A DNA stretch of 64,000 nucleotides. Source: Acidobacteriota bacterium. Lineage in GTDB: Bacteria; Acidobacteriota; Vicinamibacteria; Vicinamibacterales; UBA8438. The notes under the pieces are model-generated. The model worked only from the letters and a program-made list of their open reading frames with translations. It did no database searches and was not told the DNA's origin. The stretch covers positions 1,372 through 65,371 of the forward strand of contig DQNS01000034.1 in assembly GCA_015659035.1 (NCBI GenBank), given 5' to 3'. How positions within the stretch are numbered: the first letter of the stretch is position 1; the number at the start of each line of letters is the position of its first letter. The position numbers and the translations under genes were made by a program. Below, piece by piece: positions 30,109 to 34,256 of this stretch.

Positions 30109-31338
30109 TTACCGCAACGTCCGGATCTCCGTCTGCAGCGGGCCGGTGACGGTTGCCGACCGGTGCCCGACGTGCAGGTTGATCTCGGTCCGGAGACCGA
30201 AGTCCTCGAAATATATACCGGGCTCGATGGTCATACCGGTGCCCGGGAGAAGACGGCGCTCGTCGTGTGTCTCGAAATCGTCGAGATGCACGCCGTTGCC
30301 ATGGACCTCCTCCCCCAGACTGTGTCCGGTCCGGTGGACGAACCGGTCGCCGAACCCGGCCGCGGCGATCAGACCGCGCGCCGCGCGGTCGACCTCCCAG
30401 CCGCGTAACTCGCCGCCCGCGCGTGTCGCCCGCTGCACCAGCGCGACCGCCGCGTCACGCCCCTCGCAGATCACCGTGAACGCATCAGCATACCGTGCCG
30501 GCACGGTGGTTCCGGTGTAGCCCACCCAGGTGATGTCGGCGTAGACCGCCCTCGGTGTCGGCAGTTTGCCCCACAGGTCGAGCAACAACACCTCGTCCGA
30601 CCCGATGACCCGGTGCCGATCGCGTGTCGGTAGGTAATGCGGGTCGCCCGCGTTCTCCTGTGCCGCCACCACCGGGCGAGAGTCGCTGACGAGCCCCGCG
30701 TCCTCGAACCAGCCGGCCATCGCGTCCTGGACCTCGAACTCGGTGACCGGGTCGCCGCTGCGCATCCGCTGCGTCACCAGGTCGAACGCCTGGTCCTTGA
30801 TGGCGTAGAGGGCGCTGGAGGCTGCCTCATGGGACCCGAGGGCGTCCGCGTCCCAGACCGCCTCGAACCGCTGGACCAGGTCTCCGGACGAGCGCACCTC
30901 GACCCCGTGGGCGCGGACCGCGTCGACGGTGCCGGCGTCGACCCGCGAGACGTAGGGGATGGCGCACCCGGGCGAGAACTCCATGGCCACCGTCCGACAG
31001 CCCCTCAGCAGCGCCCGTAGCCCGGCGTCGAGCTCGCCGTGCCGCGCGTAGCGCGTCTTGTTGCCGGGGAGATGGTCGAGACGGTCGCGCTCGATCGCGT
31101 GCACGAGCGCGCGCGGCGGACCGTCCACCGGGATCAGGTAGTACCAGCGCCGTGTCGTCAGCTTGGCCGCATCGTTTAGCCCGGTCACCCGCCGGGCAAT
31201 CGGGTTGGAGCCGTGAAAGTCGTACAGCAGCCACCCGTCGAGGCCGTCATCACGCAAGGCGCGCTGGACGGCAGCGATGTCTAGCAGTCCGTGCTGAAGG
31301 TCGCCGCTGCATTCGACCGATGCTGCATCCTGCCTCAC
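30109..31338 (-). CDS. M24 family Xaa-Pro peptidase (5' end remodelled by repeat insertion)
   Basis: LLDLW, YADITW, FVHRTGHSLG..VHG, TIEPGIY, GLRTE. GTG 31338 with GGAGG SD lies inside a repeat; the probable ancestral start is ATG 31464. Confidence 0.88.
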   Translation of the reverse strand: MRQDAASVECSGDLQHGLLDIAAVQRALRDDGLDGWLLYDFHGSNPIARRVTGLNDAAKLTTRRWYYLIPVDGPPRALVHAIERDRLDHLPGNKTRYARHGELDAGLRALLRGCRTVAMEFSPGCAIPYVSRVDAGTVDAVRAHGVEVRSSGDLVQRFEAVWDADALGSHEAASSALYAIKDQAFDLVTQRMRSGDPVTEFEVQDAMAGWFEDAGLVSDSRPVVAAQENAGDPHYLPTRDRHRVIGSDEVLLLDLWGKLPTPRAVYADITWVGYTGTTVPARYADAFTVICEGRDAAVALVQRATRAGGELRGWEVDRAARGLIAAAGFGDRFVHRTGHSLGEEVHGNGVHLDDFETHDERRLLPGTGMTIEPGIYFEDFGLRTEINLHVGHRSATVTGPLQTEIRTLR

Positions 31339-31458
31339 TGCGTTGTTCCTCCGTCAAACACTGCCGGTATTCTCACGGTCACGCCTTGTAACAGCCTGGC
31401 GCGGCATTGCTGACGACGGGTCTCGGTGCGACGCGGGACCTTCAGCACGGACTGCTAG
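31281..31458 (+). mobile_element. family-A repeat, copy 5: MITE-like, perfect 22-bp terminal inverted repeats, CTAG duplication
   Basis: CTAGCAGTCCGTGCTGAAGGTC...GACCTTCAGCACGGACTGCTAG; removing 174 nt restores ATG AGC CTA GAC ATC (MSLDI) of the peptidase. Confidence 0.85.
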
Positions 31459-31558
31459 GCTCATGAGGTGGAGTATAGCAGCGGCCGCGCCGTCAGCCGG
31501 TGACACTTGCGTCGTCATCTACTGGTTTGGACGCCGGACTTTATGTGAAGGTTGGGAC

Positions 31559-31981
31559 GTGCCGTTCCGCTTTTTCGACCACACCGCCGACGTCGGTCTC
31601 GAGCTGAGCGCGCCTACCCTGCCGGCGCTCTTCGAGGAGGCGGCCCTGGCGCTGAGTGCGGTGCTCTCCCGGTCAGGGCGGGTCGAGCCGCGGCGCCACG
31701 TGTCTGTCTCGCTGACGGCGCCCTCTCTCGAGCAGCTGCTCGTCGACTGGCTCGCCGAGCTCCTCGGCCGGTTCGACGTCGAGCTGTGGGTGACCGGCGG
31801 GGTCGAGGTGACGGTTGACCGCGGTGACGGACGCTGCAGCTTGCAGGCGCTGGTCGCCGGCGAGCCGCTCGACCTCCGCCGCCACCCGGGCGCGCTACCG
31901 GTGAAGGGCATCACGTATCATCGGCTCAGCGTCCTGCAGACCGCTGACGGCTGGTGCGCCACCATCGTGCTCGATGTGTAG
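31559..31981 (+). CDS. archease (RtcB activator)
   Basis: F.FFDHTADVG, LEQLLVDWLAELL, VKGITYH, C-terminal VLDV; directly upstream of rtcB. Confidence 0.92.
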   Translation: MPFRFFDHTADVGLELSAPTLPALFEEAALALSAVLSRSGRVEPRRHVSVSLTAPSLEQLLVDWLAELLGRFDVELWVTGGVEVTVDRGDGRCSLQALVAGEPLDLRRHPGALPVKGITYHRLSVLQTADGWCATIVLDV

Positions 31982-31994
31982 GAGAGAGCTCTAC

Positions 31995-32114
31995 AGAAGT
32001 CAGGAGTCAGTCCTTCGACAACAACACCCCTGTGCTCTGCTCAGGATGAGCGGACGGAAGTCAGGAGAAGCCGGCCTGTCCGCCGTCGCCTTGGCGAAGG
32101 CGGGAGGGCTTTGC
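31995..32114 (+). repeat. family-C composite repeat, copy 1
   Basis: Heptamer run, then a 49-nt core (32007-32055) identical to 40485-40533 and 52483-52531, then a GCCTGTCCGCCGTCGCCTTGGCGAAGGCGG hairpin. Confidence 0.88.
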
Positions 32115-32150
32115 CGCGTTGCTTGAGACACTCACTGGAAAGGCCGGACC

Positions 32151-33602
32151 ATGCCGACACGAGGCGTGCACCTAGAACAGATCGATCCGTATCGCTGGCG
32201 GGTGCCGAGACAGGGCGGGATGCTGGTGGACGGTATCGTCTACGCTGACGCCGCGGTGGCCGGTGATCTGCGTCACGACCCGAGCCTCGAACAGGTCTGC
32301 AACGTCGCGCATCTGCCTGGTATCGTCGGTGCATCGCTCGCGATGCCGGACGTGCACTGGGGCTACGGGTTTCCGATCGGCGGGGTGGCGGCCACCAGCC
32401 TCGACGGCGGGGTCATCTCGCCGGGCGGGGTCGGCTACGACATCAATTGAGGCGTCCGTCTGCTGCGCTCAGGTCTGAGCCGCACCGACGTCGCCGACCA
32501 TCTACCCCGGATTGCCGATCGGATGTATCACAACGTCCCCACAGGAGTGGGGGCGCGCCGGCGGGATCTGCAGCTCTCGTCCCGCGATCTGCGGGCCGTG
32601 CTCGAGCGCGGGGCCGCGTGGGCGGTGGCGCGTGGATACGGTACCGAGGCGGATCTCGAGCGGGTGGAGGAGCGCGGCTGTCTCCCAGGTGCCGACCCCG
32701 ACCTGCTGTCCGCACGGGCACTCGAGCGGGGGCGGCCGCAACTCGGGACGCTCGGGTCTGGGAACCACTTCGCCGAGCTGCAGTATGTCTCCGAAATCTA
32801 CGACGCGCCGGTGGCGGCCGCGTTCGGGCTCCGATTGGATCAGGTCACAATCATGCTCCACAGCGGGTCCCGCGGGCTGGGACACCAGGTCTGCCAGGAC
32901 CACCTCCGGGTCATGGTCGACGCCAGTCGCCGCTACGGAATCGCGCTACCGGACCGCCAGCTGTGCTGCGCGCCGCTCGAGTCCCCGGAGGGTCGCCGGT
33001 ATCTGGCCGCGATGTCGGCTGCGGCCAACTTTGCGTTCGCCAACCGACAGGTGATGGCGCACTGGGTCCGCGAGAGCGTGGCGGAGGCGCTGGAGATCGC
33101 CCCCGAGGCCACGCAGCTGGACACCCTGTATGACGTGTGCCACAACATCGCGAAGCTGGAGACGTTCCAGATCGATGGGCGGCCTCAACGACTCTGCGTC
33201 CATCGGAAGGGAGCAACCCGGGCCTATCCGCCCGGGCACCCGGACACCCCGGCGCCCTATCGCCATGTCGGTCAGCCGGTGCTCGTGCCGGGCGACATGG
33301 GTCGGTACTCGTATGTGTTGGTCGGCACCGTCCAGGCGATGCGAGAGACGTTCGGTTCCACCTGCCACGGGGCGGGACGGCGGATGAGCCGGAGACAGGC
33401 CACGCGCGTCGGCGACGCACGTGGCCTGCTCGACGAGCTCCGCGCTCGCGGTATCCATGTGCGGGCCGCTGGTCTGGCCACGGTGGCCGAAGAGCGACCG
33501 GAGGCCTACAAGGATGTCGCCGACATCGTGCGGATCGTCCACGCGGCGGGTGTGAGCACGCGGGTTGCACAACTGCGCCCGCTGGCGGTCATCAAAGGAT
33601 GA
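32151..33602 (+). CDS. rtcB: RtcB RNA ligase, 483 aa, with in-frame TGA (codon 100) at the catalytic Cys position: candidate selenoprotein
   Basis: ORF-track pieces 32151-32450 and 32523-33602 are in one frame. [88 protein letters not shown] and IKG are all intact. Confidence 0.9.
32451..32495 (+). promoter_or_regulatory. putative bacterial SECIS element
   Basis: GGCG/CGCC, CGTC/GACG and TGCGCTCA/TGAGC(C)GCA stems with GGTC apical loop (32472-32475) 21 nt after the TGA; CAGGTCTG equals the fdhF SECIS apex. Confidence 0.75.
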
Positions 33603-33686
33603 GGCGCGCGGCGCGAGAAAAGCAAGGCGCCACGCGAACACCAGGGTCCGCGGGCACCCGTCGGGAGGTTTTCTGCTAGCGGGCTG

Positions 33687-34256
33687 CTAGCGGGCCGGGG
33701 TCTCTGCTTCGTCAGACTCGTCGGTCTCCTCGGTGTCCTCCTCCACCGGCGTCGGCTCCTCCATCTCTTCGAACACGTTGGCCTCGACCACGCCGTTCTG
33801 GTGGGTGAACTCGTAGTTGCTACGATCCATCCGCGAGTCGCGCGGCACCCGCAGCGTTATCTCGACGACCTCGTCAACCAGGAACGGACGCCGCATCCGG
33901 TGGGAGTCGCCGGTCACGGTTTCGCCGTCGCTGTCATACCAGAACTCGTCCACCTTGAACCCCGCGAGCGCGCCGGTCGAGATGTTCTTGATCCGGAAAA
34001 CGGTGACGATCGCGTTGCCCTCACGCCTCGTCACGGGTGGCAGGTAGCCGATTTGCCCGGGCCCCCGCATCGTGGCGACCAGCCGCGAGTCGCCCTCGCT
34101 CTCGAGCAACTCGCGCATCGTCGGCCCTTGGACCGCCGTTGCCGCAACGCTCCCCGCATCGCTCCCCACGTCGCCGGCGTCTGGGCTCCCACAGCCGACC
34201 GCGACGAGACCGACCACCACCGCACCGAGTAGCGCCACTAGATTCAGGCGTCTCAT
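33687..34256 (-). CDS. hypothetical lipoprotein
   Basis: GGAGG SD, signal peptide ending LVAVG-C (lipobox), acidic tail; upstream TTGAAG-N18-TATAAT promoter (34325-34296). Confidence 0.7.
   Translation of the reverse strand: MRRLNLVALLGAVVVGLVAVGCGSPDAGDVGSDAGSVAATAVQGPTMRELLESEGDSRLVATMRGPGQIGYLPPVTRREGNAIVTVFRIKNISTGALAGFKVDEFWYDSDGETVTGDSHRMRRPFLVDEVVEITLRVPRDSRMDRSNYEFTHQNGVVEANVFEEMEEPTPVEEDTEETDESDEAETPAR

Follow-up and report, generated by a model that had tools for sequence, protein, structure and literature searches.

The selenocysteine insertion sequence (SECIS) of Escherichia coli fdhF lies in frame, directly 3′ of the UGA that encodes selenocysteine (Sec). Its apex contains the octamer CAGGUCUG, in which a GGUC tetraloop is closed by A-U and C-G pairs, and a longer lower helix, which is dispensable, reaches back to the UGA (PMC13188914, section 4). 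In the general model for the bacterial SECIS (bSECIS) the apical loop has 3–9 nt and the upper stem 4–16 bp (PMC13188914, Fig. 2 legend); a G stands first or second in the loop and is followed by G or U, the apical loop lies 16–37 nt from the UGA, and the minimum free energy (MFE) is −7.5 kcal/mol or lower (PMC13188914). Here we describe a hairpin with an fdhF-type apex that follows an in-frame UGA in rtcB, a gene for an RNA ligase. It lies in a stretch of 64,000 nucleotides, called the window below, from an Acidobacteriota bacterium of the order Vicinamibacterales (assembly GCA_015659035.1, contig DQNS01000034.1, positions 1,372 to 65,371 of the forward strand). On comparative sequence evidence we consider this hairpin to be a genuine bacterial SECIS, with a probability of about 0.9. 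The support comes from its conservation and its association with UGA, not from covariation or folding energy.

Selenocysteine is a known metal ligand in FdhA, where the metal is Mo or W, and in [NiFeSe] hydrogenase, where it is Ni (PMC13188914, section 7). RtcB would resemble these enzymes in that the Cys exchanged for Sec is a metal ligand and not a thiol-redox residue, and it differs from them in not being an oxidoreductase. At the RNA level the hairpin independently supports selenocysteine as the reading of the rtcB UGA, and very probably points to an RtcB with Sec at the metal-binding Cys position.

The rtcB gene and its internal UGA

All features described here are on the forward strand. 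Read through its internal UGA, the rtcB coding sequence occupies 32151..33602 and specifies 483 residues followed by a terminal TGA at 33600. The product is an RNA 3′-phosphate/5′-OH ligase of the archaeal/eukaryal type. In translation the frame has one interruption only, the TGA at 32448..32450 (codon 100), which is the proposed Sec codon and stands at the active-site Cys of the motif GYDIN-C-G. The read-through protein belongs to the RtcB family over its full length, both by the Pfam profile PF01139 (E 1.8e-171, residues 48–483, 571.5 bits against a cut-off of 27) and by comparison with solved structures. It matches T. thermophilus TTHA1785 (2epg) with 598 bits in an alignment that crosses the UGA position. 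The chains of P. horikoshii RtcB (PH1602; 1uc2, 4dwq, 4dwr) give 559 bits, and the P. horikoshii and human (RTCB, 7p3b) chains together span 456–559 bits. The gene shares with these Cys-type enzymes the GYDIN-x-G motif and with Cys-type systems an adjacent Archease gene. Position x is Cys in the solved enzymes; in the window gene it is encoded by TGA, and the next six residues, RSGLSR, would be dictated by the SECIS. rtcB is present in single copy in the genome, which is 89% complete with a G+C content of 67%.

Orthologues were collected in three steps. An RtcB profile search of 61 genomes of the same order, the source genome included, gave 12 full-length orthologues at 545 bits or more, six with one TGA and six with none. 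Of the 30 loci found in this search 24 were examined, among which 11 are of a more distant, all-Cys GVDIGCG type and one (L038) is without the motif; these 12 loci and L039–L044 were left out of the set. A scan of one genome per species contributed the best 80 of 595 confirmed hits (20 TGA, 60 Cys), one of which duplicated an earlier locus. The best 80 of 593 hits in a metagenome scan included 79 with the motif (31 TGA, 48 Cys); the remaining one, L209, has no motif and was dropped. The total is 170 distinct orthologues, in which the equivalent of codon 100 is TGA in 56 and TGC or TGT in 114. The genome-derived subset has 91 members, 25 TGA and 66 Cys. According to their record labels, the TGA genes belong to Acidobacteriota, to lineages of Thermodesulfobacteriota or 'Deltaproteobacteria', and in one case to a metagenome-assembled genome labelled Pseudomonadota.

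Gene callers split rtcB at the UGA. The protein database entry for the window gene is a 359-aa C-terminal fragment in a cluster of 84 member sequences, and an ATG at 32523 opens the corresponding open reading frame (ORF). The full-length database relatives that were inspected have C at the Sec site in 120 of 120 cases. Judged by the split and the ATG, the locus could be a gene broken by a nonsense mutation or an assembly error, or could encode two polypeptides of 99 aa and 359 aa, the second beginning at the ATG, with the hairpin present by chance. We consider this the least probable of the alternatives discussed here, since the TGA is found at the same codon in all 56 orthologues, which come from independent assemblies and at least two phyla by record labels. 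Conservation of the open frame extends to either side of the UGA and takes in the 24 codons that separate it from the ATG, and a split would lose the metal-ligand residue. Two DNA runs of other studies gave contigs in which no difference is listed at the TGA or anywhere in the hairpin; elsewhere in the gene they differ.

Hairpin structure and association with UGA

The original prediction described a stacked stem that starts at the first base after the UGA, a G-starting loop 21 nt downstream and an apex in common with fdhF. RNAfold of 32448..32500 gave ...((((..((((.(.((((((((....)))).))))).)))).)))) at −22.9 kcal/mol, which agrees with that description. The whole predicted hairpin, with lower stem, internal loops and apical part, spans 32451..32495; the stem begins at 32451, and the loop GGUC at 32472..32475 starts 21 nt after the UGA. 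The hairpin also forms when folded in a context of 161 nt, and the E. coli K-12 record confirmed that the octamer is common to the apex of the rtcB hairpin and fdhF. Only part of the stem is conserved, namely the 21-nt apex at 32464..32484. This core, U-GCGCUCA/GGUC/UGAGC-(C)-GCA, is an 8-bp stem with one bulged C (5 bp, bulge, 3 bp) and a 4-nt loop, which is the presumed contact of SelB and is the same as the loop of E. coli fdhF. The 24-nt core has an MFE of −9.2 kcal/mol. Loop and stem sizes, the GG at the start of the loop, the spacing and the MFE, whether of the hairpin or of the core, agree with all four published bSECIS constraints. The location is also that of a SECIS, immediately 3′ of an in-frame UGA that is aligned with Cys in the 114 orthologues and the PDB chains.

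The rtcB element lies one codon farther from its UGA than does the fdhF element. Counted from the T of TGA, the loop offset is 24 in rtcB and 21 in fdhF (21 vs. 18 nt after the UGA), and that of CAGGTCTG is 22 in rtcB and 19 in E. coli K-12 fdhF. The stem below the octamer differs, and the host gene encodes an RNA ligase, not a molybdoenzyme. When narrower, fdhF-type features were sought, GGUC on a mini-helix closed by C-A/U-G was present, and the 5′ bulged U, which E. coli SelB requires, and the 18-nt loop distance were absent. Judged by sequence and predicted fold, the rtcB element is an ordinary bSECIS as an RNA, with an fdhF-type apex, and does not duplicate its E. coli counterpart.

In the 91 genome-derived sequences the family hairpin was defined by GCUC at +17 to +20 and a G[G/U] loop starting 20–22 nt after the codon. 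It was found in all 25 TGA genes and in 3 of 66 Cys genes. In the larger set an apical hairpin folds at the same place in 56 of 56 TGA genes, which have 47 distinct 24-nt cores. Every TGA orthologue has a G[G/U] loop, as read from these distinct cores, at a spacing of 20–22 nt. The loops of the 56 genes include GGUC, GGUU, GGAU, GGUCU, GGGCU, CGGGUU, CGUGYU and (A)GUC(U). A rule requiring at least four consecutive pairs is satisfied by 55 of the 56 TGA genes, the exception being L198 with 3 bp, a bulged U and 4 bp, and by 10 of 114 Cys genes, eight of which have the family sequence and two of which have unrelated hairpins. By the original prediction's own criterion the SECIS reading would fail if the hairpin were equally common in Cys homologues, and it is not (55–56 of 56 TGA genes vs. 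8 of 114 Cys genes, or 10 of 114 under the looser rule). Specificity of this kind is not provided by the generic bSECIS model. A bSECIS-like hairpin somewhere in the 16–37 nt range is present in 25 of 25 TGA orthologues and also in 21 of 66 Cys orthologues. In 20,000 synonymous recodings of the 24 codons after the UGA, drawn with genome codon usage, 6374 (32%) have some hairpin obeying the 5-bp bSECIS rules. Agreement with so permissive a model is therefore necessary, not sufficient.

Several observations weigh against a SECIS, beginning with this last percentage. The window hairpin, taken alone, is statistically unremarkable in a genome of 67% G+C. Its z-score is −1.51, with 16 of 200 dinucleotide shuffles folding as well, and the energy of the core is ordinary among synonymous recodings of its nine codons with the codon usage of the gene (p 0.27). 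Among the 20,000 recodings 1543 (7.7%) had a G[G/U]-loop hairpin 20–22 nt after the UGA. In the covariation check that the original prediction had proposed, the column-wise test was not significant: none of 7–8 pairs was compensated among the 25 TGA sequences, and 2 of 8 were compensated among the 56, a value reached by 90 of 500 shuffles. Rfam gave no match at gathering score in the window and none at E ≤ 10 in 32380..32560. The bulge is a C on the 3′ side, in place of the U on the 5′ side in the fdhF fold. TGA genes are not alone in having the hairpin, as the eight Cys genes that keep the family sequence show. Contigs X15 and X16 from RNA libraries flank the UGA on both sides and none bridges it; such libraries may contain DNA, and the contigs are evidence neither for nor against readthrough. 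Lastly, an engineered P. horikoshii RtcB with Sec at Cys98 is self-cleaving according to its authors (PMC4150793). Since generic hairpin rules are cheap to satisfy in GC-rich DNA, the evidence must come from comparison, and the case made here is a comparative one.

The most serious alternative is that the hairpin is a by-product of the conserved peptide RSGLSR with no function as RNA, the UGA being read in some other way or the peptide itself being selected. Such a by-product would fit the missing column-wise covariation, the 7.7% of recodings of the gene's own peptide that produce the hairpin at 20–22 nt, the ordinary energy of the core, and the survival of the same sequence in eight Cys genes. 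We regard it as very unlikely. The peptide is tied to the UGA, and Cys genes mostly have other residues there; those sharing the residues use different codons, for example AGC or TCG at the first Ser and TCN at the second. In the TGA genes the codon series is nearly fixed as CGC UCA/UCC GGU/GGG CUG/UUG AGC/AGU CGN, with the second Ser always AGY and never UCN. Third-position entropy at codons +5 to +10 falls to 0.4, 0, 0.86, 1.02, 0 and 0.76 bits in the TGA genes, compared with 1.37–1.96 bits in the Cys genes. This collapse is confined to TGA genes and to these codons; at codons +1 to +4 and +11 to +15 TGA and Cys genes resemble each other. A hairpin still folds in the peptide-changing variants RSGLER, RSSLER, RSVLSA and RSGLMR.

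These findings point to a constraint at the level of the RNA. In the window gene the six codons are CGC UCA GGU CUG AGC CGC, and given the peptide and the codon usage of the genome the probability of exactly this choice is 1.3e-4. The original prediction had singled out TCA and GGT as unusual AT-ending codons. For TCA this is borne out: the gene uses it once among 21 Ser codons, and across 1078 long ORFs of the genome it accounts for 4.8% of Ser codons. GGT is not unusual, at 14 of the gene's 51 Gly codons and 15% of those in the genome. Folding of the core, compared with synonymous recodings, has a median z of −1.87 in the TGA genes, with 29 of 56 at p ≤ 0.05, and of −0.14 in the Cys genes, with 7 of 114 at that level. 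The Mann-Whitney p for this comparison is 2e-12, a difference that is overstated because the sequences are related.

Within the core, which corresponds to alignment columns 17–37, pairs between columns 17–24 and 29–37 hold in 88% of cells, and in 22–47% when the 3′ partners are slid by 1–3 columns. The lack of formal covariation is explained by four nearly invariant pairs and by variants that shift the register instead of swapping bases in place. RNAalifold of the 25 sequences kept only four pairs, all invariant, and gave no covariation term. In a covariance-model alignment of the 56 sequences the shifted variants were not re-registered, except for L172, and the pair counts therefore understate the variants. 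The register variants include GCGCUCC-GGUCU-GGAGCGC (L084, L159), GCGUUCC-GGGCU-GGAACGC (L150), GCGCUCGA-GUC-UCGAGCGC (L172), GCGCUC-CGUGYU-GAGCGC (L115, L183, L188) and ACGCUC...GAGCGU (L191), and L206 has the bulge-free GCGCUCA-GGUC-UGAGCGC. They have perfect or near-perfect stems and a G-containing loop at the same distance. From their sequences we regard them as real, though formally unscored, structural compensation.

The lower stem (32451..32463 with 32485..32495) behaves differently from the core. Its pairs hold in 3–20 of the 25 TGA orthologues without compensation, apart from one C/U-G pair that holds in 25 of 25. The lower stem of the window gene is thus lineage-specific, and it probably has no role or merely adds stability. 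Partial complementarity between the codons GGN-GUN-CGN and ACN-GAC-GUN largely accounts for it.

The association with UGA can be followed on phylogenetic trees. On the 91-row tree all TGA genes fall in one clade of 58 rows together with 33 Cys genes, with at least 7–10 Sec/Cys changes. Among the hairpin-bearing Cys genes of this tree, L098 is sister to L084, L085 is inside a clade of five TGA genes, and the third, L094, is in an unresolved fork of a mixed clade, beside L076. A tree of 170 rows, built with the Sec site and the seven hairpin-coded residues masked, requires 18 Sec/Cys changes; its well-supported branches yield 11 independent Sec/Cys pairs. Presence of the hairpin follows Sec in about seven of these, opposes it in none, and is unchanged in about four (sign test, median p 0.016). 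The unchanged pairs are as expected of recent Sec-to-Cys replacements in which the signal has not yet decayed. Half-decayed versions of the hairpin are present in L070 and L073.

The energy and conservation evidence is silent on the binding partner. The hairpin could be a real RNA element with some other role, such as a ribosome pause, mRNA stability or the binding of another protein, and coincide with the UGA; another hairpin with the same GCUCA/UGAGC stem and a GGA loop is found in the rtcB leader (32039..32051). This seems to us still less probable than the peptide explanation, considering that the hairpin tracks the UGA across about 11–18 Sec/Cys changes, obeys the spacing and loop rules of a SECIS, has its loop octamer in common with the fdhF SECIS, and resembles the loop after the UGA of a formate dehydrogenase gene in the same genome, described below.

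Probable selenocysteine insertion and its consequences

A SECIS requires a genome able to use it, and this one has selC, selA, selB and selD. The tRNA-Sec gene scores 51.9 bits against a cut-off of 47 and is called SeC by ARAGORN, with anticodon tca. It occupies positions 1–91 at the very end of contig C68, so that linkage to selA and selB cannot be read. SelB, on contig C114, was recognized by its wing domain (64.8 bits) in a frame of 698 aa, SelA by a match of 442.9 bits and SelD by one of 291 bits. The SelD match (contig C139, 40101–41024) is part of an 808-aa open frame, which is far longer than the usual SelD and may reflect a fusion or no more than a long open frame; as an in-frame stop is absent, SelD is a Cys or other non-Sec form. 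SelB was found in four of five other genomes with TGA-rtcB, the exception being 74% complete, and in three of five genomes with Cys-rtcB.

A second UGA gene was found by looking directly for known selenoprotein families. It encodes an FdnG-like formate dehydrogenase (contig C30, about 30448–33777) with the UGA at 31363 in the context HQARI-UGA-HSPT, and is a candidate selenoprotein gene. The UGA is followed by the hairpin GGCC-AGUCU-GGCC, in which G-U stands at the same offset as in E. coli fdhF. One SelB in this genome would therefore meet two related loops. Both have an apex closed by G-C and G-U-C-U in the loop; the FdnG-like loop, examined in this genome, has a single G, and its G-U is 3 nt closer to the UGA than that of rtcB. 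A genome-wide screen for TGA codons that have open, GC3-rich sequence on both sides and a G/U-loop hairpin produced 1505 candidates, and in 227 of these a hairpin was present. The rtcB gene was absent from the hairpin candidates of this screen, which was too noisy and was dropped.

By the established pathway of bacterial Sec insertion (PMC13188914, sections 4–5), SelB carrying Sec-tRNA(Sec) and GTP would bind the 21-nt apex at 32464..32484 through the GGUC loop, using its C-terminal winged-helix domains. The lower helix would be melted as the ribosome reaches UGA100. SelB would then deliver Sec at this codon, and translation would proceed to the TGA at 33600 to yield a full-length RtcB of 483 residues, with Sec instead of the Cys ligand of the catalytic metal ions. 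The metal of RtcB is Mn(II). Since the signal lies within the coding sequence, residues 106–111 are held to RSGLSR or to a few alternatives compatible with the hairpin.

The novelty lies in the gene, not in the RNA element. RtcB is absent from the 119 prokaryotic selenoprotein families in Table 1 of a 2026 review, the supplementary lists of which may bear on novelty (PMC13188914). The words 'ligase' and 'splicing' do not occur in the text of that review or of a 2022 review, and the five supplementary files of a 2016 survey (PMC5029168) contain neither these words nor 'RtcB'. The engineered P. horikoshii RtcB U98 was all that a literature search on RtcB, RNA ligase or UPF0027 with selenocysteine or selenoproteins yielded. 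No model in NCBIfam describes RtcB as a selenoprotein, and a literature search for the fdhF mini-helix string found nothing.

If the Sec-containing RtcB is real, an RNA repair and splicing ligase joins a selenoproteome that is otherwise dominated by oxidoreductases. The odds tip slightly toward a broader interpretation of these data, in which RtcB would be a naturally occurring selenoenzyme, the first among known selenoproteins to act on nucleic acids, with Sec serving as a ligand of the catalytic metal ions and not in redox chemistry. Sec would probably help an oxidation-prone ligase to resist irreversible inactivation. The UGA and the 21-nt SECIS would form a nearly letter-identical cassette, distributed among Acidobacteriota and lineages of the sulfate-reducer type, that dictates six residues, has been exchanged with Cys at least about 11–18 times, and persists as a fossil hairpin in recent Cys converts. 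A natural Sec RtcB would offer a direct way to ask how selenium benefits the enzyme at this site. At a practical level, gene callers truncate TGA-rtcB genes, and the conserved 21-nt motif is a simple marker for the repair of their annotation.

Adjacent and related sequences

The gene directly upstream of rtcB encodes Archease, the activator of RtcB (31343..31981; Pfam PF01951, E 3.7e-35). The domain occupies residues 75–212 of the listed ORF, and from this placement the true start is probably later than the listed one. The spacer between the two genes (31982..32150) is not conserved in two relatives of the same genus. It contains two copies of ACNGAAGTCAGGAG 61 nt apart (31993..32006 and 32054..32067), and between them the leader hairpin already mentioned, GCUCA-GGA-UGAGC, the stem of which is the same as that of the SECIS apex. 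A match of the spacer to RsmY is below threshold (23.4 bits against a gathering score of 57, E 5.5e-4). With GGA in their loops, the motifs resemble CsrA/RsmA sites.

A full-length RtcB of 460 aa in the protein database (P0002) is 95% identical to the window protein and has C at the Sec position, with an identical peptide there. Sec may have given way to Cys very recently here, or the difference may be a polymorphism between strains. About ten studies dated 2015–2025 have near-identical copies of the gene (95–99% of sampled words) in marine, seawater, cold-seep and hydrothermal-vent metagenomes, and the lineage is therefore widespread in marine samples.

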